This document shows, piece after piece, positions 18,485 to 47,840 of a stretch of 64,000 nucleotides of DNA. Below the pieces are notes generated by a model, which saw only the letters and a program-made list of their open reading frames with translations, was not told where the DNA came from and ran no database searches. How positions within the stretch are numbered: the first letter of the stretch is position 1; each line of letters starts with the position of its first letter. Origin of the DNA: an uncultured Chlamydiaceae bacterium (GTDB lineage Bacteria > Chlamydiota > Chlamydiia > Chlamydiales > JAAKFR01); contig CALNYX010000017.1 in assembly GCA_942490925.1 (NCBI GenBank), forward strand, positions 1,345,159-1,409,158. Direction: 5' to 3'. A program made the translations under genes and the position numbers.

Positions 18485-18548
18485 GTGTTGTCAACATTTC
18501 CACACCCTTCTAGGAAGAGGAAAAAGAAGATAAATAACTCTTCTCTTT
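18485..18548 (+). repeat. Shared upstream/leader element, copy B (upstream of the hexapeptide-repeat gene)
   Basis: GTGTTGTCAACATTTCCACAC is followed by GGAAGAGGAAAAAGAAG and CTCTTCTCTTTT. It sits about 73 nt before ATG 18558, the same distance as copy A from the GTG 9336 start of hemB. Confidence 0.6.
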
Positions 18549-18557
18549 TAATAGACT

Positions 18558-19199: not shown

Positions 19200-20001
19200 A
19201 AATGCAATTGAAGTAAAAATCTCTGAAGCAATTCATAAAATGGGCGTAAAAACGCCGCTTAGAGACGCTTGCGAATATGCCCTTAGAAACGGGGGAAAAA
19301 GATTTAGGCCAGCTCTTGTTTACTTGATTGCTGAGGGGCTTGGAAAAGAAAATGATATTAGTGACGCAGCCCTAGCAATTGAGCTTTTTCACACAGCTTC
19401 ACTCATTGCGGATGATCTTCCCTGCATGGATGATGAAGAAACGCGCCGTGGCCAAGCCGCTTTACATGTTGTGTATGGAGAGGCGGTGGCTATCTTGGCT
19501 ACTTATGCTCTGATTGCAGAAGGGTATGAGCGGATTCGTCTCAATGCTCAAAAGATGGAAAACGGTGGAGAAATTGCCCTTCTGGCTTTAGAAAATGCTA
19601 CAAAAAACACAGGAATCTGCGGAGCTACAGGAGGGCAGTACTTTGATCTTTTTGCTCCTGAACAAAACTTGGTGGAGATGATTCAAAAGAAGACAGCAAC
19701 GCTTTTTGAAATCTCATTTGTCTTTGGCTGGCTTTTTGGCGGGGGTGAAATTGGTAAGCTTGACATCGTTAAAAAGGCCTCAAATCATTTTGGGGTTGCT
19801 TTTCAACTCTATGATGATCTGATGGATATAGATGAAGATGCGGTCGAAAAAAACTACGCTAAAAAATATGGCATAGAAGAAACAAAAGCAAAACTACTTA
19901 AAGAGCTCGATCTTTTTGAAGAGTGCATGGAACTTCTGTATATGAGTGACTTGCACTTATCTTCGATGATCAAAGCTAAGTGCAAGCCTCTAATGTCCTA
20001 G
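19153..20001 (+). CDS. ispA: Polyprenyl (farnesyl/geranylgeranyl) diphosphate synthase
   Basis: First Asp-rich motif LIADDLPCMDDEETRRG and second motif QLYDDLMD. The start is uncertain: TTG 19153 or GTG 19183, and both overlap the upstream gene. Confidence 0.8.
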   Translation: MLVQAFRELFVLEKYKNAIEVKISEAIHKMGVKTPLRDACEYALRNGGKRFRPALVYLIAEGLGKENDISDAALAIELFHTASLIADDLPCMDDEETRRGQAALHVVYGEAVAILATYALIAEGYERIRLNAQKMENGGEIALLALENATKNTGICGATGGQYFDLFAPEQNLVEMIQKKTATLFEISFVFGWLFGGGEIGKLDIVKKASNHFGVAFQLYDDLMDIDEDAVEKNYAKKYGIEETKAKLLKELDLFEECMELLYMSDLHLSSMIKAKCKPLMS

Positions 20002-33406: not shown

Positions 33407-34270
33407 TCAGATGGCTAGAGCATTCATTTTATTGAGTAATAGGCAGCGAAGGTGATTTTCAACACTCTGACTATCAGATCTTTTTGAAAATAACCTAGAG
33501 CCAAAGAGCCTTTTCATTCTTGAGAAGGCTGATTCAACAAGAGCTCTTCGGCTATATCCCGTCATTTTACTCCACAAAGATTTAGCAACTTGATCCCCAC
33601 CTAATGCTCGGATGATGCGCAATGCATCATCCCGATCTGGATCTTTGTTTCGTATTCGACCATTCTTGGGTGGAGGGATGAGCCCTCGAGCACCTCTTTT
33701 TGTAATAGCCTCTCTAGAAGCTCTTCCATCATATGCACCATCAGCCAAAACAGTATCTACAGAATCACTCACTTGGCTGAGGAGAACCTCAGTCATTTGA
33801 CCATCGTGTACATGCCCTTGAGTTGTTGTTTGAGCTACAATTTCCCCAGTATCCGTATCGACTGCTATATGGATTTTTACCCATCGCCGTCGTTTTGACT
33901 TTCCATGAATTTTAACCTTCCATTCTCCCTCCCCATAGACTTTAACTCCAGAAGCATCGATAGCAACAACAGAAGCATTTGACTGGCTTAAAGCAGGGAG
34001 CTTCAATTTTCTAGCTCTCTTGCATATCAATGAGTAAGAAGGAATGGAATATTTTGTAAATGACTCAGCAAAGCCTTGCAGAGCCCTATAAGCCAAATGG
34101 TAATGAATCTTGACCATCATAAGCATGGTAATCAAAGAATCGGAGAAAATCTGAGGTCTGCCACCAGTTTTAGACTTTTTGTTTTTGAACAACTTAGGGT
34201 CGATGAGAAAAGTAATGCTTCCCCTTTGAACTAGCTGTTTGTTATATTGCTTCCAATTGCGTTTACGCAT
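33407..34270 (-). CDS. DDE transposase (IS4/IS5 type)
   Basis: 287 aa with an N-terminal MRKRNWKQYNKQLVQRGS. Catalytic-region blocks are AIDASGVKV, LADGAYD and ESAFSRMKRLFG. Confidence 0.85.
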   Translation of the reverse strand: MRKRNWKQYNKQLVQRGSITFLIDPKLFKNKKSKTGGRPQIFSDSLITMLMMVKIHYHLAYRALQGFAESFTKYSIPSYSLICKRARKLKLPALSQSNASVVAIDASGVKVYGEGEWKVKIHGKSKRRRWVKIHIAVDTDTGEIVAQTTTQGHVHDGQMTEVLLSQVSDSVDTVLADGAYDGRASREAITKRGARGLIPPPKNGRIRNKDPDRDDALRIIRALGGDQVAKSLWSKMTGYSRRALVESAFSRMKRLFGSRLFSKRSDSQSVENHLRCLLLNKMNALAI

Positions 34271-34549: not shown

Positions 34550-36445
34550 ATGTTTAAAGTTAATTATTTAGATGATATAGTCCCTCAAGTTAATTGTTCA
34601 GATGATACAGTTCCTCTTCTCTGTCCAGATGCTCAAAGAAGTGCTCAAGCAGAGAGTGTAACTTCTGTTTACGAACGCCATGTTCTAAGAAAGCTCTCTG
34701 GACATCAGAAGCCAATTATCAGTTGCTTAAAGATTAATGATGAAAGGGTAATGACCAGTTCAGGCGATGGCACTGTGCGCGTGTGGGACCTGAAAGGTCA
34801 TGAACCACCTACTATTCTGCGCATCAAGCAGGGGTGCCTTTTGTGGGCGCAGCTTCATGATGGTAGAATCCTTTCTTCAACCCCTTGTAGAAAACAACTC
34901 CATTGGTGGTCAATTGAGCCTTTTGAGCTGCAAAAGAGTTATGGGACCTTCGGGGCAGTAAGCGCAGCGATTGAGTTGACTGTTTTCCCAAATAGCGTTG
35001 CCTATGGGACTGAAATGGGAAAAATTGTCATTTTAAATTACGAAAGAGGGTGTGCACTAAAGGTTATTGATCAGGCTCACAAAGGACCAATTAATTGCCT
35101 CTACCAGCTTAGTGGCCATCAACTTCTTTCATCTGCGCGTGATGATAAGACTATCCATTGGGACATGAATGATTTTACACAGCTTTCAAAAAAAGGGGGG
35201 GTAGAGACGTTGTGTTGCCTAGAGATAAATGGATGCATCGTAACAGGTGGGAGTGATGATACTTTGCGTAGCGGCGATACAGTTGTTCAAAGCAATGATC
35301 GAATCTATGCTCTTCGAAAAATTGATGAGCGTTATTTTGCCTCAGCCTCAAATACTTCTAGAGTCCAAGTGTGGGATTTCCAGACGCTTGAACAAGTTGC
35401 CTGTTTAAAAGGGCATATTGGTACAGTATGTGGAGTTTTTAGCGTGAGCAATGGCTCAATTGCTTCATTTGGGTATGATGATCCCTTACTATATGTTTGG
35501 TCAGCGGCAAGTCAAGTTGACCCTTCCGGCTATGTTCTCCCTGAAAGTGATGCCAAAATAGCAGCGGTCATCACAAGTGGAGAACTTTTTCAAAATTTCT
35601 CATATGTTCAGTTGCTAGCCGGGGATAATGTAAAGCAGATTGTCAGTATAAACGCCCATCGAATGATTTGCTGTCTCAAATCAGGAGGATTTTGCTTTCT
35701 AGAAAGTCAAGGGGTGAGCAAGGTTTATTTAGGTGATAACACGATTCTACTCTCACCTTGGGATGATCAGCAAGCCGTAATTGGATTGGATGGGAAAGTC
35801 CTGGCTATATGGAACTTTGCACAGAAGAAGGCAGTACATCGTACTGTAGGGCCTAAGGAGAAAAGCATCAGTTGTGTTTTGCCTGTCAGTTCTGAAAACA
35901 TTGCTTTTGGCTGCACAGATGGAAGTGTTTGGGTTTGGAATCTCAATTCACAGAACTGCAGATTACTGAAAAAAAATCAACACGCAGGACCTGTAAGAAA
36001 ATTAGTGCTGGGGCTAAATGGGGCATTTATGTCTGTTGGAGAAGATAAGACCCTCTATTGGAGTCTAGGAAATGATCCTAAGGAGAAAACGGAGTGTTAT
36101 GCACTCTGTTTACCAAGTGGGAATGTGATCTACCGCCCTGAAAAATCAATGCTACTTTTTACAGCTCTTGGCCAGGCTTTACATACATTTAGTTACAAGG
36201 GAGGCGCTGTCGTAAAAGCGATTCCGCTTGCTGGTAGTGATAAGCTTTTTGCAACAGCTTCAGAAGATGGAACGATCTGTATTTGGAATATTGAAAAGAG
36301 AAATCCCCTGGCAACGCTGAGAGGGAATAATACTTTCCTCTCAGACCTTGTTCAAAGGTCTGATGGTTGCCTGATCGCTTGTGGTAATAAGGGAGTCGAT
36401 AGATTCACTTTTGCTCTTCCAAAGAAGAAGAGCTGGTTCAAATAA
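34550..36445 (+). CDS. WD40/beta-propeller repeat protein (eukaryote-like)
   Basis: 631 aa with recurrent WD-type units (GHQKPIISCL...SSGDGTVRVWDL; HKGPINCLYQL...SSARDDKTIHWDM; GHIGTVCGVF...; ASEDGTICIWNI). Confidence 0.8.
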   Translation: MFKVNYLDDIVPQVNCSDDTVPLLCPDAQRSAQAESVTSVYERHVLRKLSGHQKPIISCLKINDERVMTSSGDGTVRVWDLKGHEPPTILRIKQGCLLWAQLHDGRILSSTPCRKQLHWWSIEPFELQKSYGTFGAVSAAIELTVFPNSVAYGTEMGKIVILNYERGCALKVIDQAHKGPINCLYQLSGHQLLSSARDDKTIHWDMNDFTQLSKKGGVETLCCLEINGCIVTGGSDDTLRSGDTVVQSNDRIYALRKIDERYFASASNTSRVQVWDFQTLEQVACLKGHIGTVCGVFSVSNGSIASFGYDDPLLYVWSAASQVDPSGYVLPESDAKIAAVITSGELFQNFSYVQLLAGDNVKQIVSINAHRMICCLKSGGFCFLESQGVSKVYLGDNTILLSPWDDQQAVIGLDGKVLAIWNFAQKKAVHRTVGPKEKSISCVLPVSSENIAFGCTDGSVWVWNLNSQNCRLLKKNQHAGPVRKLVLGLNGAFMSVGEDKTLYWSLGNDPKEKTECYALCLPSGNVIYRPEKSMLLFTALGQALHTFSYKGGAVVKAIPLAGSDKLFATASEDGTICIWNIEKRNPLATLRGNNTFLSDLVQRSDGCLIACGNKGVDRFTFALPKKKSWFK

Positions 36446-36514: not shown

Positions 36515-38365
36515 GTGCTACAGTCAATCCCTATGAATGAAAAGCTCAAACGGATTTATCGAGAAGCATACGATGTTGTTATCCCCGACCTTGACTACTA
36601 TCTAAGGCAAATCGATTGTCGCGACGGTTGCCCTGTAAACACTGACGGTCGTGGCTACATGCTGGCTATTCACTCTGGAAATCTGTTGGAGGGATACAAA
36701 ATTGCACGCGGTCCCAATCCCTTTGCTTCGATCTGCGGCATCATTTGTGGTGCTCCTTGTGAAATTGCATGCCGGCGCGATCGTGTCGATAAAACTCTGA
36801 CGATCCGCGCGCAGAAGCGCTATCTAGATGAGTGGTTTGGGCTCGATAAACAGGCGCATATCAAATCACTAGAATTTAGCTATGCGCGCGGCTCTACAAC
36901 ACCAAAGTCAAATGGTTTGAAAGTCGCATGTGTCGGCGCCGGGGTTGCGTCACTCACTTGTGCACATGACTTATTACGTTTGGGCTACGCTGTTGATGTT
37001 TATGAACAGATGCCGTTGCCAGGCGGCTTACTTGTCTACGGAGTGCCGAACTATCGGTTGAAAAATGAGGTCGCGATCAATGAGTGCGCAGCGATTGAGC
37101 ATTTGGGAGCCAGGATTCACTACAATACGAAAGTTGGGCGAGATATCACACTTAGTGAACTTGAAAAGCAATACGATACGATATTTATCGGTAATGGGCT
37201 GTGGAAATCTCGAGAGTTACCAATCCCAGATTTTGAAGCACCAGATATCATTCGTGGTGTCGAATATCTACGGCTACTTTGCGCAGAGCAGAAGTGGAAG
37301 ATAGGGGAACAAGTTATCGTTGTTGGCGGGGGAAACGTCGCATTTGATGTCGCCCGCTCTTCTGTCCGCAATGGAGCTAAACATGTGACGATGGTTTGCT
37401 TGGAGGCGCGCGATGAACAGACTGCTGATGAATTTGAAATCGAAGATGGGATGGAAGAGGGCGTTGCGATTGTCAACCGTGTCGGCCCTGTCTCTGTTGA
37501 GCGCGATGGGAGTGGAAAGATCATTGGGATCAAACTGCAACGAGTTCACTCGCTATTTGATGCAGATGGACGGTTTGCTCCCGACTTCATTGCCGAAACA
37601 GAGTTTGTCATCCCCTGTGATACGATAGCGCTTGCCATTGGCCAGGGGATGGACATGAGTCTGTTTGATGGGTGGGAGCGAAAAAACGAATTTGTCCTTG
37701 AGCGAGGTGTCATCAAAACAGAGAGAGAAACAGGGCGTACTTCAATCAAAGGGATTTATGCAGGCGGAGATGGGGCTTTTGGTCCAGCACTTTTCATCGA
37801 TGCTGTGCGTCACGGTCAGAACTCAGCAAGAGCAATTGATGCAGACTTGCGCGGCACACGTCCCTACCAGGAATTTGTTGGTGAGTTTACAACTGTGCCA
37901 CCGATGCGCGATAAGGCCTACTTGCGTACAAGTTGGTCTTTGCCAACAATGCAACCGGTTGAAAAACGGAAGCACTCTTTGCAACTGGTCGAAAACAACT
38001 ACACAGACGAAGAGGTGCATCAACAATCCAATCGCTGCCTTCAGTGTCACATCTCTCCAGTGTTTGATGGCTCTTTATGCATCAAGTGCAATGGGTGTGT
38101 CGATGTCTGTCCTACCAATTGTTTAAAGCAGGTTTACATTTCCCAGATGAATTTGGATTTGGGTGAAGGGAATATGCGTAAAGCTGTTGATAATCACTAT
38201 GGAGTTGATTCAGCGAGTATGAGTGATGAGGAGTTGAACCAGCTTGGCTCAGCGATGTTGAAGGATGAAGACCTTTGCATTCGGTGTGGGCTGTGCGCAG
38301 AAAAGTGTCCGACGCAAGCTGTGACGATGGATCTGATGAATTATTCGTTCAGATGGATCGGGTAA
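36515..38365 (+). CDS. GltD-like NAD(P)H-dependent FAD/Fe-S oxidoreductase with C-terminal 2x[4Fe-4S] ferredoxin domain
   Basis: N-terminal Cys cluster region (CRDGCPVNTD; ICGIICGAPCEIACRR), two dinucleotide folds (VACVGAGVASLTCA...GG; VIVVGGGNVAFDVA) and GIYAGGDGA. The C-terminal motifs are CIKCNGCVDVCPTNC and CIRCGLCAEKCPTQ. The start may be ATG 36533. Confidence 0.8.
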   Translation: MLQSIPMNEKLKRIYREAYDVVIPDLDYYLRQIDCRDGCPVNTDGRGYMLAIHSGNLLEGYKIARGPNPFASICGIICGAPCEIACRRDRVDKTLTIRAQKRYLDEWFGLDKQAHIKSLEFSYARGSTTPKSNGLKVACVGAGVASLTCAHDLLRLGYAVDVYEQMPLPGGLLVYGVPNYRLKNEVAINECAAIEHLGARIHYNTKVGRDITLSELEKQYDTIFIGNGLWKSRELPIPDFEAPDIIRGVEYLRLLCAEQKWKIGEQVIVVGGGNVAFDVARSSVRNGAKHVTMVCLEARDEQTADEFEIEDGMEEGVAIVNRVGPVSVERDGSGKIIGIKLQRVHSLFDADGRFAPDFIAETEFVIPCDTIALAIGQGMDMSLFDGWERKNEFVLERGVIKTERETGRTSIKGIYAGGDGAFGPALFIDAVRHGQNSARAIDADLRGTRPYQEFVGEFTTVPPMRDKAYLRTSWSLPTMQPVEKRKHSLQLVENNYTDEEVHQQSNRCLQCHISPVFDGSLCIKCNGCVDVCPTNCLKQVYISQMNLDLGEGNMRKAVDNHYGVDSASMSDEELNQLGSAMLKDEDLCIRCGLCAEKCPTQAVTMDLMNYSFRWIG

Positions 38366-38426
38366 GGAGTCCTGGAGCATTATTTAGTGACTCCTTAAGA
38401 AACCTCTGAAATTAAATAAAGTTGAG

Positions 38427-38576
38427 TTGAATATCGAGATCTTTTGGTTTATCATATTTTCTTTGATCGGTGGCATCGCCGCACTTGTGGTCTTTCTCTA
38501 CTGTTTGAAGAAAGGACAGTTTGAGGATGTTGAAGAGACCAAGTACCAGGTGTTTCGCGATGATGAGGAGGATTAG
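38427..38576 (+). CDS. CcoS/FixS-like mini membrane protein (unannotated sORF)
   Basis: 49 aa from TTG 38427: NIEIFWFIIFSLIGGIAALVVFLYCLKKGQFEDVEETKYQVFRDDEED. One TM helix is followed by K-x-GQ-F/Y-[DE]-D and an acidic tail, as in CcoS. The stop TAG overlaps the Rieske GTG (TAGTG). Confidence 0.55.
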   Translation: MNIEIFWFIIFSLIGGIAALVVFLYCLKKGQFEDVEETKYQVFRDDEED

Positions 38577-39088
38577 TGCCAAAATATCGAAATAGTCTGC
38601 GCGTTGTTAAAGATACAAAAGAGCCAAAAGTTTCTAGACGTAAGTTTTTAGCGCTCATTGGTTGGGGCGCCGTAGCGGGTGTTGGTGGCATCTTGGCATC
38701 TGCAATGGGAGGCTTTCTCTATCCGAACGCTCTTAAGATTCCCCCAAGTGTTTTTTCCATTGGCAGGCCAGACGATGTTCTCTCTTCTGAAGGGCGCGTA
38801 TTTCTTCCCGGACAGAAAGTTTTTGTTGAAGTTGCTCGTGGTCGTGTGCGTTGTCTCACAGCGATTTGCACACACCTAGGTTGTACTGTGAATGGTGTTG
38901 AAACGGGTTTTAAATGTCCATGTCACGGTTCGACATACGATTTGGATGGAAAAAATACGGGCGGACCAGCTCCAAGCCCGCTTGTCTACTTCCAGGTCTA
39001 CAAAGGGGCCTCAGGAGAATTACTTGTTGATAAAAGTCGCGAAATCCATGTGCCAGCTGAATCATGGTACTCGCCAACTGCTGCGTGA
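38576..39088 (+). CDS. Rieske [2Fe-2S] protein with twin-arginine signal/anchor
   Basis: SRRKFLALIGWGAVAG (Tat motif plus TM) and the cluster boxes CTHLGC and CPCHGS. Confidence 0.9.
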   Translation: MPKYRNSLRVVKDTKEPKVSRRKFLALIGWGAVAGVGGILASAMGGFLYPNALKIPPSVFSIGRPDDVLSSEGRVFLPGQKVFVEVARGRVRCLTAICTHLGCTVNGVETGFKCPCHGSTYDLDGKNTGGPAPSPLVYFQVYKGASGELLVDKSREIHVPAESWYSPTAA

Positions 39089-39093
39089 AAAAG

Positions 39094-40422
39094 ATGGCCT
39101 CATTTAAAGGGAAACCAAAAAAAAGCTTTTGGCAAACACTCGAAACGCTTCCTGCTGATTTTGTGCGTTCGATTTTTCGTCATCGCTATCCAAGCAATGA
39201 TGTCGATCGCTCTGAGATCGTCTTCAAAAACTTTTTCCTCCACATCCATCCAGTCAAGTGTCACAAAACAGCTGTTGATCCTTTTCACACACTCGGACTT
39301 GGCGCCATAACGGCAAGTCTTTTCTTCTTGCTTGTCATCACAGGCGTTGTCTTGATGTTTTTCTACATTCCTGCTGTTGATCGCGCCTACACTATTCTTG
39401 TCGACTGGCTTGACACGACACCATTTGCGATGATGTGGCGCAACATTCATCGATGGAGCGCGCAGTTGATGGTGCTCTTTGTCTTCCTCCACATGAGTCG
39501 CGTCTTTTACATGGGGGCCTATAAGGGAGAGCGGAAATTCAATTGGATGATCGGTGTGATCTTGATGGTCATTACCCTTTTTCTCTCATTCACTGGCTAT
39601 CTTTTACCTTGGGATCAACTCGCTTTTTGGGCCATTACAGTCGGCTCTGAGATTGCGGGTTATGTTCCAGGGATTCCAGGGATGCAGTATAACATCAACA
39701 AACTGATGCTATTGGGGTCGACAACGGTGGGGCAAGATGCATTGATTCGCTTCTACGTTCTGCACGTGATGGTCCTACCCCTTCTTTTAGGAACCTTTTT
39801 AGGGGTCCATTTCTGGAGAATCCGAAAAGATGGAGGGTTAGCTCGTCCTCCAGATCGTTGGCGTCCAGATCCTTATAGAGTTGTGCAACGCTCTGACACC
39901 AAAGAGTCATTTGCCCCTGGTGTCCGTCGAACCTATGGCTTGATGGAGCTTGTCAGGGGTGCAAATCCCACAGTCGACAGAGGACCAGAGAATTACGTCT
40001 TTACCTGGCCAAACTTGCTCAGAGCAGAATTAATGGTCTTTTTGGGCACTGCTGCACTTGTTGTGCTCCTTTCGCTCTTTATTGATGCACCTCTAGAAGA
40101 GATCGCAAACCCTTCTAAACCAACAAATCCTGCAAAAGCACCCTGGTATTTCTTAGGGTTACAAGAGATGGTCTCTTACAATGCTTTTTGGGGAGGTGTG
40201 GGTATTCCGATGTTGATTATCATAGGGTTAGCGCTTATTCCTTATCTTGATCGGAATCCTCAAGGTGAAGGTGTTTGGTTCCACAAGAGCCGCTATTTCG
40301 GTATTTTTCTCTACACAACATTCATGACAATCCAAGGGCTTTTAGTCGTAGTTGGAGTCTTTTTCCGAGGCCCCAACTGGAGTTGGATTTGGCCATGGAC
40401 TGACAATTTTGCGAGGCATTAG
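39094..40422 (+). CDS. Cytochrome b (b6-like, with fused subunit-IV-like C-terminal part)
   Basis: The track ORF starts at 39064; ATG 39094 lies 6 nt after the Rieske stop. The helix B pair is IHRW...x13...LHMS and the helix D pair is LHVM...x14...VHFW (b6-type spacing). The APWYFLGLQE block is present. Confidence 0.9.
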   Translation: MASFKGKPKKSFWQTLETLPADFVRSIFRHRYPSNDVDRSEIVFKNFFLHIHPVKCHKTAVDPFHTLGLGAITASLFFLLVITGVVLMFFYIPAVDRAYTILVDWLDTTPFAMMWRNIHRWSAQLMVLFVFLHMSRVFYMGAYKGERKFNWMIGVILMVITLFLSFTGYLLPWDQLAFWAITVGSEIAGYVPGIPGMQYNINKLMLLGSTTVGQDALIRFYVLHVMVLPLLLGTFLGVHFWRIRKDGGLARPPDRWRPDPYRVVQRSDTKESFAPGVRRTYGLMELVRGANPTVDRGPENYVFTWPNLLRAELMVFLGTAALVVLLSLFIDAPLEEIANPSKPTNPAKAPWYFLGLQEMVSYNAFWGGVGIPMLIIIGLALIPYLDRNPQGEGVWFHKSRYFGIFLYTTFMTIQGLLVVVGVFFRGPNWSWIWPWTDNFARH

Positions 40423-43400
40423 TGCGCTATCAAACAGGTTATCAATACGCTTTGATCTTTTTTGCAGCGCTTGTCGTCTTTTCAATTGGTGTGTTTGTCT
40501 ACAAAGAGCTTTTTCCTGAGTATAAGACCTACCAGTATGCCTATAAAGAGCTTGAGGCACTACGTTCAAAGGTGACTGGAGAAAAACCGGCTCCATTTGC
40601 AACAGGGATTCGTCAGATCATGATTCCTGATCCTGACAATGGCCCTGAAGTGATTGATCGTTGCACGTCGTGTCACGTCGCAATGAACCTCCCTCATTTT
40701 TCTCCAAAGCGTCTGGCGCTTGATGTGAATGACAATCCCATTGTCGATGCTCAAGGTGATCCTGTACTGGAAGCTAACCCGAGTTACATCTGGACAGAGG
40801 TAGGCGAGAAGGCGAAGCATCTAGACACAAAAGAAATGCGCATGGCGCTGATGGCTCACCCGCTGATAGGAGCTGAAACACGACCTTTTGAATACCATTC
40901 AATGGAAGAGTATGGCTGTACAACTTGTCACAGTGGTAATGGACGTGCACTGGTTGCAAAACGTGCTCATGGACCTGTTTTCGACGAAACGTATGAACCG
41001 GCTGACCTGGGCAAGAAGCCGCAATTCTTAGAGATCGATGAGGAGCATGATCCACTTCTTGCGAGGATGTATAACAACAAGCCTGGTCATGATTTGGTCT
41101 TTCAGACAACGCCGCTTTTTGTTGGGCCGCTCATGACAGCAAAGTGTATGCAGTGTCACCAGTCGACTGCATCAGAGATGCAGGCAACGCTTGAGAAGAT
41201 TACAGATTTGGAAGCAAAGAAAAAAGAGCAGGTCGCACTTCTAGAAAAAGGGATTGAAGATGATAAATCAGCGCTAGCTGCATTGACGGATTTACAAGCG
41301 CGTTTGAAGAGTGAGGGATATGCCAAGACAATTGCTTGGTTGCAAGAGCAGCTGGGGGATTTTCGCCTCTCTTCGGAGCAACTCGATGCATACGCTGGGC
41401 AGCTGACATTCATGCAGACGAACAAAGAGAATCCAGATGAAGCGATTGTCAAACAGCTTGACATGCTTGGGAAGCATTCTATTTTGGCAAAAGAGCAGAT
41501 GTTGGCAGAAATTGAGCCAACGCTTGAAATGTTTGATCGAGCAAAGGCTCCTCTTTTTGTTGCAGGTCAAGATAAGCAAGTGGTAAGTAAGATGCGCTCA
41601 CAAGTTGACCGGTTAACGGTGAGCTACCAAAGAGGGCAAGAACTTTTTCTTTCTCAGGCCTGTTATGCTTGCCATCGCATTGCTGGCTTTTCACGCTCGA
41701 GTGTTGGTCCTGAGTTGACAACTGCAGGTTTGAGTTATCCCTGGTTTATCAAAGAGTCGATTGTATGGCCTCAGGCTGATTTGCCCTCTTCAACGATGCC
41801 GAATTTTCATCTCGATCATGAAGAGCTTGGCGATCTGATGGCATTTTTGATGGCACAAACAGGTAATCGCAAGGTGCAATCAGAAGTGGAACATCAAATC
41901 GCGCTCAACCAGTGGGAAGCTGGCGAGAAAATGGCGTGGGAAAAACCCGTTGCTCCGACGCAGATTCATGACTTGCGCGCTGGGATGATGATCTATGCAA
42001 CACAAGGGTGCGCCGCTTGTCACAAGTTGGAAGGGTTTGAATCTAATCTTGCAGTTGAAGATGAGCTCTGGTTCAAAAAGTTGTTTCCTGAACAGATTAC
42101 AGGATCAAAGTTAGCAGCAGTAGTTGAAGCACATGGCAAAGAGATCGAAGCGCAGTTTAAGCAGGTTCGCAAGAATGGGATCTTAGAAGAGATTGAGCTC
42201 GGCTATCCCGGATTGCTTATGGGGTACTACTCTAACTTCAAGTTTGCAGCGCGCAAAGGAAATGAAGACTTATTGAACAAGGTGTTGATGGGTTATATTC
42301 AAGCCTATGGACTTGGTCGTGACATTGCACCAGCGCTTAATTGGTCAGGAGTCTACCGAGATAATGCCTGGCTAATGGGACATTTTCACAATCCAAATGC
42401 TTATACTGCAAAATCGATCATGCCTGTCATGCCATTTGATGATACGAAATTCTACACACTCAACTACATGTTGCATAAGCTAGGGGAAAAAAATCGTGAT
42501 GCATTGCAACAAGTTTGGAAAAAAGATGGATTTGATCCGCCAGCAGCTTATACAGCGCTTTGCTCTTCCTGTCATGGCCCAAATCGCCAAGGAAATGGAC
42601 TTGTCTCTGAGTGGATCTACCCGATCCCTAAAAACCTGAGAGATCCTGTTTTCTTACGCAGTTTGACTAAAGAGCGTGCAATCGATTCGATCTGGCACGG
42701 CGTTTCTGGCACACCGATGCCGCCTTGGGGAGAGACTATCGAAGGGGAACCTGTACTCAACTATGCTCAGATTGTAAAGCTAGTCGACTGGTTGTATCAA
42801 GGATTGCCACCAATGCCGCGGCAAGCAAGTGAAGAAGAGAAGTGGAACTATACTCCAGAGATGGTTGTGCAAGAGATGGAAAAAGAGCGCGAGCTGTTGC
42901 AGCCCTCACACAAACCTGTCGATGTTGCAACCTACTTTGAAGTGCGCCCCAATCCGATTCCTGGCCCAGATAAAGAGCTCTATTTCATCAGAGAGCAGTT
43001 TTATACCCCTGAGAATTTGGAGGAGGGAAGAGAGTACTACGATGTGAACTGCGCAACTTGTCATGGAAAAGATGGTGGAGGAACAGGTTTACGCTCGACA
43101 TCCATGGTTGAAGCAAAACCTCGTATGCTCACCAATTTGCCTTGGATACGTTCACGCGATGATCTCCGTTTACTTCGCTCCATCAAATATGGTGTAGCTG
43201 GCACTGCGATGATCCCTTGGGGAGATCAGACAACCGCGGCTCAACGAATGGAACTGGTGATGTACATTCGAGAGCTGACACGTATGCAAATTCTGCGCGA
43301 TGACTTTGAAGAAGTGATCTATGATGTGTTCGATCGCCGAGAACTCGAACTGAATGAAGCACGCATTCCAAACTATGAAGCACTGGAGAAATTACAAACA

Positions 43401-43853
43401 GCCTATGATCAAGCTGTTTTAGAGGGTGCTCCGCTCACCATGAAAAAAGAGCTAGCTGAAAAGCGAGCAATTGATGCGCGCTACCTAGAAGAGATTGAGC
43501 TTCTTCAGCAAGAGCGTGAAATCTATAGAACACTCGGCTTGCAGCTCATTGGTAAGGAGCTTCCCTCGCCGATTATTGAGAGTTACTTTGAGTTTCTACA
43601 TGAGCGCAAAGGTGAGCCTCTTGCAGTGATTGGCTATCTTGATCAAGTGATCGCGGATTATCAGAAGCAGCTTGATGATCTCACCCAAGGACTCAGTGAT
43701 ATGGAAATTGTCCAGAATAAGCGTGTACAAAAAGTGATTACAGAGCAACGTGGCTACATCAACTTGCGCACGAAGCTAATGATGGGGGTTTCAAACGGTA
43801 AAAGACTGCAGGAAAAACAGCGAGACCTCTATAATGCCCTCCATGATGCATGA
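40422..43853 (+). CDS. Membrane-anchored heptahaem cytochrome c with CcoP-like dihaem module
   Basis: 1143 aa with an N-terminal TM helix. The seven CxxCH motifs start at residues 81, 166, 242, 413, 530, 714 and 877. Domains 6-7 (CSSCHGPNRQGNG...GTPMPPWG; CATCHGKDGGGTG...GTAMIPWG) look like FixP/CcoP. The GTG start overlaps the cyt b stop (TAGTG). Confidence 0.85.
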   Translation: MRYQTGYQYALIFFAALVVFSIGVFVYKELFPEYKTYQYAYKELEALRSKVTGEKPAPFATGIRQIMIPDPDNGPEVIDRCTSCHVAMNLPHFSPKRLALDVNDNPIVDAQGDPVLEANPSYIWTEVGEKAKHLDTKEMRMALMAHPLIGAETRPFEYHSMEEYGCTTCHSGNGRALVAKRAHGPVFDETYEPADLGKKPQFLEIDEEHDPLLARMYNNKPGHDLVFQTTPLFVGPLMTAKCMQCHQSTASEMQATLEKITDLEAKKKEQVALLEKGIEDDKSALAALTDLQARLKSEGYAKTIAWLQEQLGDFRLSSEQLDAYAGQLTFMQTNKENPDEAIVKQLDMLGKHSILAKEQMLAEIEPTLEMFDRAKAPLFVAGQDKQVVSKMRSQVDRLTVSYQRGQELFLSQACYACHRIAGFSRSSVGPELTTAGLSYPWFIKESIVWPQADLPSSTMPNFHLDHEELGDLMAFLMAQTGNRKVQSEVEHQIALNQWEAGEKMAWEKPVAPTQIHDLRAGMMIYATQGCAACHKLEGFESNLAVEDELWFKKLFPEQITGSKLAAVVEAHGKEIEAQFKQVRKNGILEEIELGYPGLLMGYYSNFKFAARKGNEDLLNKVLMGYIQAYGLGRDIAPALNWSGVYRDNAWLMGHFHNPNAYTAKSIMPVMPFDDTKFYTLNYMLHKLGEKNRDALQQVWKKDGFDPPAAYTALCSSCHGPNRQGNGLVSEWIYPIPKNLRDPVFLRSLTKERAIDSIWHGVSGTPMPPWGETIEGEPVLNYAQIVKLVDWLYQGLPPMPRQASEEEKWNYTPEMVVQEMEKERELLQPSHKPVDVATYFEVRPNPIPGPDKELYFIREQFYTPENLEEGREYYDVNCATCHGKDGGGTGLRSTSMVEAKPRMLTNLPWIRSRDDLRLLRSIKYGVAGTAMIPWGDQTTAAQRMELVMYIRELTRMQILRDDFEEVIYDVFDRRELELNEARIPNYEALEKLQTAYDQAVLEGAPLTMKKELAEKRAIDARYLEEIELLQQEREIYRTLGLQLIGKELPSPIIESYFEFLHERKGEPLAVIGYLDQVIADYQKQLDDLTQGLSDMEIVQNKRVQKVITEQRGYINLRTKLMMGVSNGKRLQEKQRDLYNALHDA

Positions 43854-45258
43854 CGATAGACCCGTTAAACAGATGTTGTACCCCGCAGTTCTCTTTTTAC
43901 TCGTTGGGCTGCTCATCGGTATTTTCATTTCTATCAACGGTTTTCTCTTTCCCGATTACTTCTCAGGTGAATATATCCACTTTGGGCGCGTCCGTCCTGT
44001 ACATGTTGGCACAGTCACAATCTTGTGGCTCCTTTCTGCTGATATGGGACTCCTCTACTATTTTGTTCCCCGTCTAGCAGGCACTCCATTATGGAGCTTC
44101 AAGCTCGCTTGCGTCACAACAGTCATCTGGTGGGTAAGCGCTGTGTTGGGTATCTTCTCCTATCCAACAGGTACGAATTTTGGTTGGGAATATGCTGAAT
44201 TCCCCATGACAATTGGGAAGGGACTGATCCCCATCAAACTGCTTATGACAATTGGTTGGGTGCTATTTGCTATTAACATCTTTGCCACCATCATGAAGCG
44301 GAAGCATAAACAGATGTATGTTTCGCTCTGGTATGCTCTTGGAACCCTTATTTGGACCTCTATTACCTTTGTGGTTGGTAACTTTCTCATCTTGCTTGTC
44401 CCCTATGGAATTTCACGGGTTAACACGAGTTTTTTCTATGTTCACAACCTTGTCGGCTTGATTTTTACTCCGATGGGTCTTGCCATTGCCTACTACTTCA
44501 TTCCCAAAATTTCCAAGACACCGATCTACAGTCATCGCTTGTCGATGGTTGGATTTTGGTCGATTGCATTTTTCTATGCCTGGATCGGTGCGCATCATAT
44601 GTTGCATGGACCCGAGTCACAGTGGTTACAAACAACGAGCATTATCTTTTCGATGTGGTTAATCATTCCAGTTTGGACCGTAGTGACCAATTTATTTGGA
44701 ACGGTGAAACGTGGCTGGGAGATGTATAGTAAAAGTGCTCCATTGCGCTTTTTAACCATGGGAGTCGCGTTCTACCTGATCGTCTGTTTGCAAGGCTCTT
44801 TGCAATCGTTGCGCAACGTGAATGAGGTGATCTCAAAAACCGATTGGATCATCGGACATGCTCACATGTCACTACTAGGCACATTCAGCTTTTTTGCAAT
44901 TGGAGGTGTTTACTACGCCATTCCACAAATCACAGGCAAACCCCTTTGGTCTGAGAGGTTGGCTAACTGGCATTTCACTCTTGCACTTACAGGCTCAGTG
45001 CTCATGTTTGTCGTCCTATGGATTGGAGGTTTTCATCAAGGACTCATGTGGGCAAATTGGGGCACAGGGACAACCTACTCACAGTTTCATGAAAATCTTA
45101 GCCGCGTTCCTTTCTTACTTACCGTTGAAAAGATGTGGTGGTGGTGGTTTTGGAGAATGATTGGAGGCGTCATCATTTTCATCGGATGCGCTATATTTGC
45201 TTTCAATATCTTCAATACCATTATCCTTGATCCTCCTTCAGAGGAGGGAGACGCATGA
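43834..45258 (+). CDS. ccoN: cbb3-type (C-family) haem-copper oxidase subunit I
   Basis: 12-TM protein with His ligand contexts RPVHVGT, FFYVHNL, GAHHMLHG and GHAHMSLLG. The start is among ATGs at 43834-43846 and overlaps the cytochrome c stop. Confidence 0.85.
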   Translation: MPSMMHDDRPVKQMLYPAVLFLLVGLLIGIFISINGFLFPDYFSGEYIHFGRVRPVHVGTVTILWLLSADMGLLYYFVPRLAGTPLWSFKLACVTTVIWWVSAVLGIFSYPTGTNFGWEYAEFPMTIGKGLIPIKLLMTIGWVLFAINIFATIMKRKHKQMYVSLWYALGTLIWTSITFVVGNFLILLVPYGISRVNTSFFYVHNLVGLIFTPMGLAIAYYFIPKISKTPIYSHRLSMVGFWSIAFFYAWIGAHHMLHGPESQWLQTTSIIFSMWLIIPVWTVVTNLFGTVKRGWEMYSKSAPLRFLTMGVAFYLIVCLQGSLQSLRNVNEVISKTDWIIGHAHMSLLGTFSFFAIGGVYYAIPQITGKPLWSERLANWHFTLALTGSVLMFVVLWIGGFHQGLMWANWGTGTTYSQFHENLSRVPFLLTVEKMWWWWFWRMIGGVIIFIGCAIFAFNIFNTIILDPPSEEGDA

Positions 45259-46487
45259 AAAAACTTGAATGGTCAGCCATCTGGACAGTCATCGGTGTGA
45301 TCATTCTGTTTGCTTCTGCTATTTTTGTGACCCTATGGGCTCCAAGGCATATCGATCCCAGTTGGCAACAGGCCTCTAGCACTTATCAAGTGCAGATGTA
45401 TGAAGTTTCAGATCCTAACGTCTATATCAGCACCTCGAATCCAGGCGGCTGGGGATTACAATATGTCTATCACTTGCAAAGCGGCCAAACATTGCATGCA
45501 TTTCAAGAGAGTGAAACAGTGCGTATTTTGGCTTCTAAGGAACTTGAGCCTTATGTAACGCGCCTTGGAGATCCCGACTTAAAGTTGACTTCCAAAGTCC
45601 TTTTACTCCGTCAACCCGCTTCACAAGCGGATGAAAAATCTTTTCGCAAAAAGCTGGAAGGTGATTTGCATTACGAAGTTCTTGAGCTCTATGACCCGCA
45701 AAAAGAGCAGGCATTTGCGGTGACTGAAACAGATGGTGTGATTGAAAACTGGGCAGAGGGAAATTTCAAGCTTCTAGGAGCTCAACCCTCCTACTACACA
45801 GAGCATGGTGTCATCTATATCAACAATCCCAAAGAGTATCGCGTCACCAAAACTGTTTTCCAAGGCGACCCTTACTGGCTCTATGATGAGAATGGAGAGC
45901 CGATTACAGATCTGCCTGAATTGAAGGGGGGAAGACAGGGCTTCTTATCTCGCCAAAGCCTCATCAAGATGGGTGAAGACATCTATCGGGTAGAAGGGTG
46001 TTGGTATTGCCATACAGATCAGACGCGCACACTCATTCAAGATACCGTTCTCAATGGAGCTCCAGACTATCCTGCGCCACCTTCTGCAGCCAATGAATAC
46101 ATTTATCAGCGCGTTACATTTCCAGGGACAAGACGGATTGGGCCTGACATTTCTCGTGTTGGGATTAAAAGACCACACAGGGACTGGCACCAATCACATT
46201 TTTGGTCACCCAAATCAGAGAGTAAAGGGAGTGTGATGCCAGCTTTTGGACATTTCTTTGATAATGACCCGACTGGAACAGCGCGTAACCCTTACGGCGT
46301 GCCGAATTACAAGTTTGAGGCAATTTTCCAATATCTGATGACAAAAGGAACGCGCATGTTGCCTCCAACGCAAGCCTGGTGGCTTGGTAAGGATCCAATT
46401 CAGACAATCGACATTATTGAGGGAAAACCTCTAAAAAATGCGCACATGGAATCTAGCATCGATCTTTCCAATAAGGTTCCAAAATGA
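45255..46487 (+). CDS. ccoO: CcoO-like monohaem subunit with approximately 190-aa insertion
   Basis: N-terminal TM helix, then YRVEGCWYCHTDQTR, and RIGPDISRVGIKRPHRDWHQSHFWSPKSESKGSVMPAF (compare the canonical GPDLxRVGxK...W...H...P...S.MP). ATGA overlaps occur at both ends. Confidence 0.8.
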   Translation: MKKLEWSAIWTVIGVIILFASAIFVTLWAPRHIDPSWQQASSTYQVQMYEVSDPNVYISTSNPGGWGLQYVYHLQSGQTLHAFQESETVRILASKELEPYVTRLGDPDLKLTSKVLLLRQPASQADEKSFRKKLEGDLHYEVLELYDPQKEQAFAVTETDGVIENWAEGNFKLLGAQPSYYTEHGVIYINNPKEYRVTKTVFQGDPYWLYDENGEPITDLPELKGGRQGFLSRQSLIKMGEDIYRVEGCWYCHTDQTRTLIQDTVLNGAPDYPAPPSAANEYIYQRVTFPGTRRIGPDISRVGIKRPHRDWHQSHFWSPKSESKGSVMPAFGHFFDNDPTGTARNPYGVPNYKFEAIFQYLMTKGTRMLPPTQAWWLGKDPIQTIDIIEGKPLKNAHMESSIDLSNKVPK

Positions 46488-46672
46488 TTGATAGTACAGG
46501 AGCTTATGGATTTTATTTGCATTATGCCTGCCTTTTTCTTTTTCTAATTGGTGCTCTGAGCGTATTTATTTATTTGGCATGTAAAGGGCGACTTGATATG
46601 AATGAAGATCCAAAATATCATGTCTTTGATGAGGAGCTAGAGGATGAGCGAGGAAATTCCTCCGACAGATGA
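46484..46672 (+). CDS. Mini membrane protein in CcoQ position, paralogous to the CcoS-like sORF
   Basis: 62 aa with one TM helix, then YLACKGRLDMNEDPKYHVFDEELED. This parallels YCLKKGQFEDVEETKYQVFRDDEED at 38427-38576. Confidence 0.5.
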   Translation: MIDSTGAYGFYLHYACLFLFLIGALSVFIYLACKGRLDMNEDPKYHVFDEELEDERGNSSDR

Positions 46673-46856
46673 GAAAAAAATCCCCCTATTTTTGTACATC
46701 ACTTATGTCGTGGTGTTGTTATGGGGACTGTGGGCTTTCTATGCCTACTGGAATGGCTCTCAAGGTTTTTTAGGGCATGGTTATTGGCGCCCCTTGCAAA
46801 AAGCCGCAGCAACTACGTATCCATTTGAGAAAAAGAGTCCACATCTACACTCTTAA
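46644..46856 (+). CDS. Mini membrane protein, possibly a stand-alone FixP/CcoP N-terminal anchor
   Basis: 70 aa. EKKIPLFLYITYVVVLLWGLWAFYAYW resembles the NPLPxWW...F..T...A..Y anchor region of CcoP. It overlaps the previous ORF by 29 nt. Confidence 0.4.
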   Translation: MSEEIPPTDEKKIPLFLYITYVVVLLWGLWAFYAYWNGSQGFLGHGYWRPLQKAAATTYPFEKKSPHLHS

Positions 46857-46965: not shown

Positions 46966-47655
46966 TCAACTCTTAGAGAATTTTGCATAAAGAATTGTCG
47001 ACTCATAAAGTAGCATGAGAGGCAAAGCTAGAAGCAATTGAGAAAGGACATCAGGAGGCGTCAGAATTGCTGCCAGGATGAAGATTGCGAGAATGACATA
47101 GCGCCTACCCTTTGCAAGTAGAGAGGCGCTTAAAAGTCCAAAATGAACGAGAATCAGTAGGGCAACAAAGAGTTCAAAGGCGAGACCATGTGCAAGAAGC
47201 AGCGAGAGTACAAATTGCAGAGTTTTCGAAAAACTCCAGAGGTTAAGGCCTAGGGGCGCGTTGAAACGGACAAAGAAATCGATCACCAGTGGGAGTGATA
47301 CGAAATAGGCAAACAGGACACCTCCAGTGACAAAAAGAGATGAGAGAAAAAGAAAGGGAAAGATGAGTTTTTTCTCGTTTGAATGTAAAGCGGGAAGAAG
47401 AAATTGCACAATCATGTAAAGCCAAATTGGAGAAGTTGCAATGAGCGCTGCCCAAAATGAGACTTTAAGTGCTGAGGTGAAACCCTCGATTGGATTGAGG
47501 AAGACTAAATTTTCATGGACAGGGGCCAGCACCAAACCGAGCAGTTGGCGGTGGAAAATCAGGGCTATGAGGAAACCAAAAAAAAGAACACCTCCAATCC
47601 GAATAAGGGTTTTCCTTAGGATTGCAAGGTGTTCCCAGAAGGTAAGGTCAGTCAT
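46966..47655 (-). CDS. tatC: Twin-arginine translocase subunit TatC
   Basis: 229 aa with 6 TM helices and an N-terminal FWEHLAILRKTLIRI block. Confidence 0.85.
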   Translation of the reverse strand: MTDLTFWEHLAILRKTLIRIGGVLFFGFLIALIFHRQLLGLVLAPVHENLVFLNPIEGFTSALKVSFWAALIATSPIWLYMIVQFLLPALHSNEKKLIFPFLFLSSLFVTGGVLFAYFVSLPLVIDFFVRFNAPLGLNLWSFSKTLQFVLSLLLAHGLAFELFVALLILVHFGLLSASLLAKGRRYVILAIFILAAILTPPDVLSQLLLALPLMLLYESTILYAKFSKS

Positions 47656-47672: not shown

Positions 47673-47840
47673 TTATTTATCAGGGGTTTCTTTCTTGTCA
47701 TCTTCAATGATGCCTTGAGAAGCCTTCTTGAATTCGCGCAAACCTTTTCCAAGGTTTTTTGCAAATTCGGGAAGCTTCTTTCCTCCGAAAAGGACCAGAA
47801 CAACCATTAAGATAACAATCAGCTCCCAACCACCAATCAT
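47673..47840 (-). CDS. tatA: Twin-arginine translocase subunit TatA/E (unannotated sORF)
   Basis: 55 aa: [43 protein letters not shown]... The ATG overlaps the stop of the upstream gene (ATGA at 47837-47840). Confidence 0.85.

Follow-up and report, generated by a model that had tools for sequence, protein, structure and literature searches.

The window analysed here, a 64,000-nucleotide stretch of contig CALNYX010000017.1 from an uncultured Chlamydiaceae bacterium, contains an operon of nine genes (36515-46856, forward strand) that encodes a Rieske/cytochrome b complex together with a high-affinity oxygen reductase of cbb3 type. On balance, we consider it probable that this operon specifies one respiratory branch assembled from two modules, namely a nicotinamide adenine dinucleotide (phosphate) (NAD(P))-linked Rieske/cytochrome b complex of the type described in anaerobic ammonium-oxidizing (anammox) bacteria and a cbb3 oxidase that lacks CcoP. 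Module 1 would consist of genes 1, 3, 4 and 5, and module 2 of genes 6-9 plus the assembly gene 2. The predicted proteins carry the cofactor motifs of a complete chain from the quinol-oxidizing Qo site to haem b3/CuB, and their genes are strictly co-inherited. We are highly confident of the composition of the complex, and give a physical supercomplex an even chance. Reduction of NAD(P)+ driven by O2 is more doubtful, and the most elaborate possibility, a single supercomplex performing O2-driven menaquinol bifurcation in which low-potential b haems, four iron-sulphur (FeS) clusters and flavin adenine dinucleotide (FAD) would make NAD(P)H, is in our estimate unlikely.

A check of the open reading frames (ORFs) of the window recovered all nine co-directional genes where an earlier reading of the sequence (the original prediction) had placed them, and Pfam and NCBIfam profile searches bore out every identity that it had assigned. 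Gene 1 (36515..38365) encodes a GltD/NfnB-like, NAD(P)-linked FeS flavoprotein with Pyr_redox_2 and Fer4_20 domains and two C-terminal 4Fe-4S motifs. It is followed by gene 2 (38427..38576), which specifies a CcoS/FixS cbb3 maturation mini-protein of 49 amino acids with a TTG start and one transmembrane (TM) helix, by gene 3 (38576..39088) for a Rieske 2Fe-2S protein of 170 amino acids with the twin-arginine translocation (Tat) motif RRKF, and by gene 4 (39094..40422, in a frame open from 39064) for a cytochrome b of 442 amino acids and fused b6/subunit-IV type (Pfam Cytochrome_B, 130 bits). Gene 5 (40422..43853) encodes a giant, membrane-anchored heptahaem cytochrome c of 1143 amino acids, gene 6 (43834..45258) CcoN of 474 amino acids, and gene 7 (45255..46487) an enlarged CcoO of 410 amino acids, twice the normal size. 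The last two genes, 8 (46484..46672) at the 'ccoQ position' and 9 (46644..46856), encode mini membrane proteins of 62 and 70 amino acids, each with one TM helix. All nine lie on the forward strand.

The translationally coupled junctions that had been claimed are present in the sequence. TAGTG overlaps occur at 38574-38578 and 40420-40424, ATGA overlaps occur at 45255-45258 and 46484-46487, and the TGA stop of the giant cytochrome gene (43851-43853) lies 3′ of three in-frame ccoN ATGs (43834, 43843 and 43846), so that CcoN could also start at 43843 or 43846. The gap before the cytochrome b gene, previously given as 6 nucleotides, is in fact 5 nucleotides (Rieske stop 39086-39088, ATG 39094). 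Shine-Dalgarno-like GAGGAGG or GGAGG sequences precede several of the starts, and gene 1 and ccoS lie 61 nucleotides apart. For gene 1, ATG 36533 is the probable start, giving a product of 610 rather than 616 amino acids (from GTG 36515), because its orthologues have 610-611 amino acids; cytochrome b likely starts at ATG 39094, because orthologue N-termini read MA.FKG. Promoter and terminator scans of the operon gave no difference from shuffled sequence. The guanine-cytosine (GC) content of the operon, 0.45-0.47, is no different from that of the remaining window.

For comparison, metagenome contigs were scanned with an alignment of chlamydial and Kuenenia cytochromes b, which returned 80 loci whose neighbourhoods were classed by blastp against the window proteins. 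Six of these loci are chlamydial, and about twenty from soil and peat (L016-L037, here called group 2) have a cytochrome b roughly 50% identical to that of the window; the remainder mostly have split cytochromes b, with or without a flavoprotein gene, and c subunits of 400-1400 amino acids with 4-10 haems. A scan of genome contigs with a single protein returned three close loci. As a Kuenenia-type reference we used locus L009, which encodes a Rieske protein, b6, a flavoprotein, subunit IV and an octahaem cytochrome c of 945 amino acids.

The Rieske protein has RRKF at residue 21, one TM anchor, and the boxes CTHLGC (98) and CPCHGSTY (114). Its second box is of the 'SY' type (Ser119/Tyr121), as in all six chlamydial metagenome loci, and Baymann et al. 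2012 (PMC3509893) assign potentials of 300-350 mV to Rieske proteins of the S/Y type. The best PDB matches are the anammox chains 9rk3 (Kustd1480, E 3e-18) and 9rk4 (Kuste4569, E 4e-16), ahead of b6f Rieske proteins, and blastp aligns it to the L009 Rieske protein with 36% identity (E 2e-32). In cytochrome b, the haem ligands are H119/H133 (H-x13-H) and H224/H239 (H-x14-H), the spacing from which a b6-type protein had been predicted, and b6 chains are indeed its best PDB matches (E 4e-38 versus 1e-24 for bc1 cytochrome b, 14 orders of magnitude apart). The CxHxGC/CxCH boxes and the two His pairs that characterize a Rieske/cytochrome b pair are thus all present. Cytochrome b is a single polypeptide with a b6-like part of four TM helices and a subunit-IV-like part of three, about seven in all; it carries the Qo motif APWY (349) and matches both ExtP and ExtQ of NCBIfam. 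Compared with Kuenenia-type L009, its b6 part is 47% identical (E 2e-62) and its subunit IV part 49% identical (E 1e-41), the latter aligning solely to residues 35-175 of the 277-amino-acid L009 subunit IV. The Cys that binds haem cN is replaced by Gly68: TWCMGG of the Kuenenia type reads TLGLGA in all five chlamydial sequences aligned. Presence of this Cys shows no clean correlation with presence of a flavoprotein gene.

The link to NAD(P) comes from gene 1. Its product is cytoplasmic, without a TM helix, and has ligands for about four FeS sites (Cys 35/39/74/78/82/86 and CxxCxxCxxxC at 522 and 588). The best PDB match is the Bfu-type chain of NfnABC (9bov/9bp5, E 4e-84, residues 35-602), and in the same PDB sequence search the C-terminal Fer4 part matches FwdF (5t5i); exactly these templates were obtained by Hauser et al. 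for the anammox protein Kuste4570 (PMC12954380). Against the Kustd1483-type subunit in L009, blastp gives 31% identity (E 1e-88, residues 19-611 versus 3-564), and both proteins have the C-terminal double-ferredoxin architecture. The flavoprotein is conserved like cytochrome b among chlamydial loci (74-84% versus 75-91% identity to the window proteins). Among metagenome loci with adequate coverage, its gene precedes that of the Rieske protein in 6/6 chlamydial and 11/11 group-2 cases, as well as in 6/8 of the other loci with a fused cytochrome b and 4/20 of those with a split one. By homology and gene context, gene 1 encodes a counterpart of the NAD(P) oxidoreductase subunit of anammox Rieske/cytochrome b complexes and is no bystander; a flavoprotein homologous to Kustd1483/Kuste4570 is encoded together with Rieske protein and cytochrome b, as in the anammox type. 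Because the anammox subunits co-migrate, we infer that the flavoprotein would dock on the cytoplasmic face of cytochrome b. Co-migration of the anammox homologue with its Rieske/cytochrome b complex is reported as cited in PMC12954380, where incorporation of the flavoprotein and reduction of NAD(P)+ by quinol bifurcation are put forward as a proposal.

These data bear on a simpler picture, in line with the original prediction, of a proton-motive quinol:cytochrome c reductase with a plain Q-cycle that feeds the cbb3 oxidase. Gene 1 would then not encode a subunit but a co-transcribed enzyme with, say, a regulatory or redox-balancing role. Cytochrome b keeps its four haem ligands and a Qo-type motif, 61 nucleotides and ccoS stand between gene 1 and the Rieske gene, and the Rieske/cytochrome b core evidently works without the flavoprotein elsewhere, because 16 of the 20 split cytochrome b loci lack its gene. 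A co-transcribed outsider would, however, sit poorly with a gene that is invariably present and highly conserved in the chlamydial and group-2 loci, and whose anammox homologue is flanked by the genes for b6 and subunit IV, its product co-migrating with the complex. We regard the plain Q-cycle as improbable.

The third component of module 1 is the giant cytochrome. Of 117 homologues with 1000 or more amino acids, 116-117 keep each of its seven CxxCH motifs (residues 81, 166, 242, 414, 530, 714 and 877), whereas sequence conservation is poor in its helical regions (about 255-395 and 960-1143). The AlphaFold2 model (predicted local distance difference test (pLDDT) 82.5, predicted template modelling score (pTM) 0.81) has an N-terminal TM helix at residues 9-27, a trihaem block (haems 81, 166 and 242) modelled at low confidence, a long helical hairpin at 249-383 (helices 249-298 and 338-383), four mono-haem domains (haems 414, 530, 714 and 877) and a C-terminal bundle of very long helices at 939-1142. 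The haem-5 domain (530) carries a CcoO-like motif, GxxxAPxLxW...HFxNPxxxxxxSxMP, and the terminal class-I domains resemble ActE of alternative complex III (ACIII). Foldseek returned the Kuenenia dihaem protein 6h5l_B (E 1e-4) and ACIII ActE (6lod_E/6f0k_E), and the PDB sequence search agrees. Similarity to the octahaem cytochrome of L009 is weak and limited to the class-I domains (E 5e-10). The protein is colinear with a 462-amino-acid group-2 hexahaem subunit, from the N-terminal helix through IRQI..PD..DRCTxCH, GCTxCHxGxGRA and xxCxQCH to the CcoO-like and class-I domains, and is therefore an expanded form of the module's own c subunit and not a CcoP/c1 hybrid.

This qualifies the earlier suggestion that the heptahaem protein replaces both CcoP and c1/f. 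The ORF list and profile searches revealed neither a ccoP nor a c1/f gene within the operon, in agreement with that suggestion, but identity as a CcoP/c1 hybrid is unsupported. A CcoP-like C-terminus was considered and rejected: the match to TIGR00782 is partial (50 bits, cut-off 180), no CcoP chain occurs among the PDB sequence matches at E <= 0.01 or in the fold searches, and the closest folds are ActE and the Kuenenia dihaem protein. As the evidence stands, the membrane-anchored multihaem cytochrome is supported as the sole candidate link between Rieske protein and CcoO. Separately, multihaem c subunits of this Rieske/cytochrome b clade hold CcoO-like (FixO) domains, at residues 630-680 of the giant cytochrome and at 11232-12620 of the group-2 locus L017 (E 1e-20). 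Such domains hint at a common origin of CcoO and these c subunits.

Module 2 is centred on CcoN, which scores 285 bits against PF00115, has ccoN as its best NCBIfam match, and aligns end to end with Pseudomonas stutzeri CcoN (3mk7_A, E 1e-63). All of the ligands are present, with H57/H344 for haem b, H342 for haem b3, H204/H254/H255 for CuB and the helix-VII cross-link Tyr at Y248, corresponding to P. stutzeri H60/H347, H345, H207/H257/H258 and Y251, and E119 is also kept. A gene for mono-haem CcoO adjoins ccoN, and from its motifs CcoN qualifies as the catalytic subunit of an O2-reducing cbb3-type enzyme of the C family. The minimal functional cbb3 unit is CcoN plus CcoO (PMC5697931). In CcoO, the FixO match (78 bits, cut-off 29.6) is confined to residues 236-338 of 410, the mono-haem domain having CWYCH at 249 and Met328 in an MPxF motif. 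Between the N-terminal TM anchor and this domain lies an insert of about 190 residues (approximately 40-230) that AlphaFold2 folds as beta-rich with pLDDT 84-98; it has no fold match in the PDB (best Foldseek E 1.7) and no Pfam match even at E 10. Among 1.84 billion proteins, 29 cluster representatives match the insert, nearly all in the same position after an N-terminal helix, and the named CcoO homologues are all chlamydial. The one match that is not CcoO-like, a protein of 881 amino acids (P0379), has ten tandem matches to insert residues 18-59, so that a beta-hairpin-like unit of about 40 residues also exists as a repeat.

The mini-proteins extend this oxidase signature. The gene 2 product had been called CcoS-like and indeed exceeds both thresholds (PF03597, 40.4 bits against a cut-off of 23.1; TIGR00847, 29.9 bits against 28.35), and ccoS occupies the second position in all chlamydial loci, including L006, in which ccoNO are displaced. 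Gene 8, also conserved in all chlamydial loci, shares with CcoS a TM helix and the motif K(K/G)x(F/L)(D/E)xxE(D/P)xKYxxF. All ten of its orthologues score 16-29 bits against a hidden Markov model of chlamydial CcoS, whereas the best of 500 composition-preserving shuffles reached 7.8. These scores identify gene 8 as a divergent CcoS paralogue, giving the operon two predicted CcoS-like genes, one in each half. The gene 9 product has a conserved motif, FWNGSxGWxDRGxWxxLQxAAxT, with 36-64% identity in all chlamydial loci that reach that far, and is presumably an oxidase or supercomplex subunit. Identity of either mini-protein 8 or 9 with CcoQ/FixQ was rejected, as Pfam gave no match and gene 8 proved CcoS-like instead.

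Across the wider cytochrome b family, the first half of the operon is shared and the second half is not. Group-2 loci have the order flavoprotein, Rieske, fused cytochrome b and hexahaem c (454-580 amino acids), without an oxidase. A downstream ccoN was found in 4/4 chlamydial versus 0/28 non-chlamydial loci. Large multihaem c subunits are a trait of the whole family, and the link to cbb3 is what chlamydiae have added. Three features are specific to chlamydiae: the direct link to a CcoP-less cbb3 oxidase, the new beta-rich domain of CcoO, and the presence of a cbb3 assembly gene inside the Rieske/cytochrome b half. Our guess for the phylum of group 2 is Acidobacteria, from the Solibacter entries of Baymann et al. 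In one of its loci (L017, 12664-14085), the gene after the hexahaem cytochrome encodes a protein of 473 amino acids with one CxxCH near its N-terminus, beta-barrel-like, Gly/Tyr-rich and of no Pfam family, possibly the acceptor or partner in the soil and peat lineages.

Within chlamydiae, the operon is widespread and stable. The giant cytochrome has 673 homologues, and those with names among the best 120 all belong to Chlamydiales, Parachlamydiaceae or Waddliaceae, with the Waddlia chondrophila protein 41% identical. A neighbourhood search for the same gene order, recommended with the original prediction, found it in Waddlia and in all of the chlamydial loci obtained. W. chondrophila WSU 86-1044 (CP001928) has the nine genes in identical order, as do two more long contigs of chlamydial origin and four additional loci from metagenomes (listed with this order are Waddlia, L003, L007, L011, L014 and L015), and L010 keeps it until the contig ends inside ccoN. 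Across all chlamydial loci, the window proteins are matched with identities of 74-84% (flavoprotein), 75-91% (cytochrome b), 59-83% (CcoN), 58-83% (Rieske protein), 52-77% (CcoO), 38-58% (giant cytochrome) and 36-69% (both mini-proteins), which argues that all nine genes are real and under selection.

The genomic setting points to vertical inheritance of the operon and not to an island, since its flanks are syntenic with those of Waddlia and L007. With Waddlia, the upstream flank from RecA to the Dus-acylphosphatase pair is shared; with L007, the permeases, TrpRS and UvrB upstream and TatC, TatA, CT_584, UPF0137 and ThrRS downstream. Between UvrB and the operon, the window carries an insertion sequence (IS)-type DDE transposase on the reverse strand (33407-34270) and a WD40-repeat protein of 631 amino acids on the forward strand (34550-36445). 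These are the kind of neighbours that a recently acquired metabolic island, new to this genome, might have. They are absent at this position in L007 and Waddlia and so look like a local insertion 5′ of the operon promoter region. Recent horizontal acquisition is in fact very improbable: synteny of the flanks refutes it, GC content matches the rest of the window, the named nearest homologues of the giant cytochrome and of CcoO are all chlamydial, and published reconstructions place these genes in chlamydial ancestors, CcoN/O in the last common one and PetBD in the G2 ancestor with loss solely in Chlamydiaceae (Dharamshi et al. 2023, PMC9816063). In the same vein, Baymann et al. 2012 placed cytochromes b of Parachlamydia and Waddlia in their 'group A2' with two Kuenenia enzymes (PMC3509893). 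The operon had been described as a major metabolic addition, and relative to Chlamydiaceae this holds; for chlamydiae in general it does not, given the same order in Waddlia and all loci, the synteny and the ancestral reconstructions.

The components and their presence in environmental chlamydiae are already known, and the gene order has been publicly available from the time of the Waddlia genome sequence. A search of the accessible literature gave no published description of a chlamydial flavoprotein in 'complex III', of a heptahaem subunit, of an enlarged CcoO or of a Rieske/cytochrome b-cbb3 unit. A paper outside that literature, by ten Brink et al. 2013 (BBA, 'Multiple Rieske/cytb complexes in a single organism'), may discuss these clusters, and an earlier account of the chlamydial gene context may therefore exist.

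Comparison with named systems places the Rieske/cytochrome b half closest to the anammox complexes Kustd1480-1485/Kuste4569-4574 (Kartal et al. 2013 as cited in PMC12954380). Rieske protein, b6-type cytochrome b, subunit IV and flavoprotein are all homologous (E 1e-32 to 1e-88), both have an N-terminally anchored multihaem c with long helices in place of c1/f, and both share the high-potential-type Rieske box, the APWY Qo motif and an LHxHP motif. They differ in that the chlamydial b6 and subunit IV are fused, with three C-terminal TM helices versus five in anammox; in the missing haem-cN Cys; in the position of the flavoprotein gene, first in chlamydiae but between the b6 and subunit-IV genes in anammox; in the c subunit, with seven haems versus six or eight and only weak similarity (E 5e-10); and in the partner, a cbb3 O2 reductase in chlamydiae versus an HAO-like protein or nothing. 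Group 2 shares the order flavoprotein, Rieske, fused cytochrome b and multihaem c, the absence of the cN Cys, a flavoprotein 35-42% identical (blastp) and a c subunit colinear over haems 1-3 and the later haems, but has a compact six-haem c, no ccoS, ccoN or ccoO, and a Rieske box that is mostly S/F.

The operon follows none of the textbook layouts for bc1, b6f or ccoNOQP, as had been stated at the outset. It shares with b6f the 14-residue His spacing and the 4+3 TM arrangement, yet lacks the split between b6 and subunit IV, the Cys35 of haem cn (Gly68 here) and cytochrome f; bc1 has eight TM helices, 13-residue spacing in both His pairs and c1, whereas here the second pair is H-x14-H and there is no c1 gene. 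Like canonical ccoNOQP, it encodes a CcoN in which every ligand and the cross-linked Tyr are present, together with a mono-haem CcoO and CcoS; it differs in lacking CcoP, in the extra CcoO domain of about 190 residues with no known fold, and in a 'ccoQ slot' filled by a CcoS-like paralogue and then another mini-protein. Functionally related are the proteobacterial bc1-cbb3 supercomplexes, the bc1-c4-c5-cbb3 of P. aeruginosa (PMC10556555) and the engineered one of Rhodobacter capsulatus (PMC7876108), which likewise have a quinol-to-O2 route, a C-family oxidase and bound c carriers. Theirs, however, use a bc1 cytochrome b of eight TM helices, c1, CcoP and separate c4/c5 or cy, are encoded in separate operons without a flavoprotein, and oxidize ubiquinol. 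The obligate supercomplexes actinobacterial bcc-aa3 and Flavobacterium ACIII-aa3 resemble the chlamydial arrangement in having no soluble cytochrome c and a built-in extra c-haem domain that feeds the oxidase directly, and ActE of the latter is similar to the last haem domain of the giant cytochrome; these systems differ in their A-family oxidases and in their quinol-oxidizing modules, unrelated in ACIII, or dihaem QcrC.

There is a possible mechanism for such a branch. Menaquinol would be oxidized at the Qo site, with the first electron passing from the Rieske protein through the heptahaem cytochrome to haem c of CcoO, haem b of CcoN, haem b3/CuB and O2. Direct transfer from the heptahaem protein to CcoO is what we infer, because the operon encodes no other c carrier, ccoS lies inside the Rieske/cytochrome b half, and the lineage-specific extensions could form an interface. 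The second electron would move over haems bL/bH to the cytoplasmic face, the site of the flavoprotein, and from the b haems via the four FeS clusters to FAD, where NAD(P)+ could be reduced; alternatively, flow would be reversed, with NAD(P)H feeding in. The first direction, an O2-driven quinol bifurcation analogous to the anammox proposal, is slightly favoured, because the S/Y Rieske protein (300-350 mV) combined with menaquinone gives the mismatch from which Hauser et al. argue for a very low-potential bL able to reduce NAD(P)+ (PMC12954380). Chlamydiae make menaquinone, with a potential of about -70 mV (PMC5826181).

One alternative is that NAD(P)H is the input, with electrons passing over FAD and FeS to haem bH or the Qi site, so that a cytochrome c reductase fed by both NAD(P)H and menaquinol would supply cbb3, much as FNR docked on b6f does in cyclic flow. 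GltD/NfnB-type proteins normally accept electrons from NADPH, and reduction of menaquinone by NAD(P)H is energetically favourable. Homology and gene adjacency are equally compatible with this direction, and chlamydiae are heterotrophs with a tricarboxylic acid cycle and a pentose-phosphate pathway (PMC5451489), but the genome already encodes Na+-NQR (NqrA, 12470-13807), an uncoupled NAD(P)H route would waste energy, and a very low-potential b chain accounts better for the predicted pairing of a high-potential S/Y Rieske protein with menaquinone. We hold this alternative to be tentative and rather unlikely.

A second alternative keeps all of the proteins but not the bridge, with two separate, co-expressed complexes and the heptahaem protein moving between them as a tethered shuttle, in the manner of cytochrome cy. 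The junction of the giant cytochrome gene with ccoN is precisely where three chlamydial loci carry inserted DNA: in L001 one gene for a secreted protein of 261 amino acids (3750-4535), in L012 about 1 kb (approximately 15460-16480), and in L006 a segment of 5.6 kb that bears three oppositely oriented genes, for aconitase and two unknown proteins (13555-18573). In view of these insertions, the obligate supercomplex and the 'hard-wiring' of the original prediction are conjectural. This junction is the sole breakpoint seen in the operon among the chlamydial loci recovered, and a multihaem c of 400-1400 amino acids follows cytochromes b of this clade in many lineages without an adjacent oxidase. 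Set against this are the lack of a gene for CcoP or a soluble cytochrome c in the operon, the constant co-occurrence of the chlamydia-specific helical bundles of the cytochrome with the CcoO domain, and the position of ccoS within the Rieske/cytochrome b half. Separate complexes are a serious possibility, if one to which we give less than an even chance.

Several observations count against an anammox-type, NAD(P)-linked complex joined to a cbb3 oxidase. The same three insertions indicate that the two modules are genetically separable. With Gly in place of the haem-cN Cys and three TM helices in the subunit IV part rather than five, cytochrome b lacks two hallmarks of the anammox type, and its cytoplasmic face would be unlike that of the modelled anammox complexes. 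H50, the counterpart of a His proposed to bind an extra interfacial haem b, was dropped as evidence, as it shows no correlation with presence of the flavoprotein gene: its LHxHP motif is family-wide and it is kept also in loci without a flavoprotein gene, so it is not specific. The oxidase subunits fall below the NCBIfam equivalog cut-offs (ccoN 276 bits against 583, ccoO 64 bits against 200.65), which makes CcoN and CcoO, by profile score, divergent and non-proteobacterial members of their families. GltD-type subunits, as noted, usually oxidize NADPH, and it is not obvious why heterotrophic chlamydiae with Na+-NQR should require electrons to flow in reverse to NAD(P)H. Finally, a KEGG-based analysis of Neochlamydia S13 lists cytochrome c oxidase as present and 'cytochrome c reductase' as missing (PMC3991601), which reflects either a real CcoNO without a Rieske/cytochrome b module or an unusual module that went unrecognized.

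Other genes of the window provide some context. Convergent with the operon lie TatC (46966-47655, PF00902, E 2e-56) and TatA (47673-47840, PF02416, E 1.5e-21), both on the reverse strand and also downstream neighbours in L007. They are likely the export route for the Rieske protein, an association that we draw from RRKF and position; this protein is an obvious and perhaps the main Tat substrate of these genomes. The window is chlamydial by content, with CT_584-like and UPF0137 genes, a TopA-SWIB fusion and NqrA. HemB for haem synthesis (9249-10319), NqrA of Na+-NQR (coordinates given above) and a polyprenyl synthetase (19153-20001) lie in the same window, consistent with a complete haem- and quinone-dependent respiratory chain. 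Apart from respiration, the window encodes TopA with a C-terminal SWIB domain (4911-7427), a double-length ThyX-like protein of 549 amino acids (7444-9093), a protein of 717 amino acids with GreA domains confined to its C-terminus (14339-16492), and a protein with a eukaryote-like PI3/PI4-kinase domain (62468-63838).

The finding bears on a mechanism proposed for anammox bacteria, NAD(P)-reducing bifurcation; those organisms are hard to handle, and the exergonic partner reaction is uncertain. In chlamydiae, a single operon pairs the core module of the anammox complexes with a clearly defined partner, the cbb3 O2 reductase. Both Waddlia and Parachlamydia can be cultivated in amoebae, and with a defined O2 partner and cultivable hosts both the NAD(P) direction and the supercomplex are directly testable in chlamydiae. 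In Protochlamydia, expression of the respiratory-chain gene class is late and falls in the elementary-body stage (PMC5451489). What published metabolic reconstructions draw as 'complex III + cbb3' boxes is a non-canonical machine, with a flavoprotein that is not reckoned among the respiratory proteins, a heptahaem wire and a CcoO domain of unknown fold. For the evolution of oxidases, the operon offers a clear case of a cbb3 enzyme without CcoP, in which electrons would enter through the cytochrome that belongs to the quinol oxidase itself. If true, O2-driven bifurcation in chlamydiae would be the aerobic counterpart of a mechanism proposed, but never demonstrated, for the anammox complexes.

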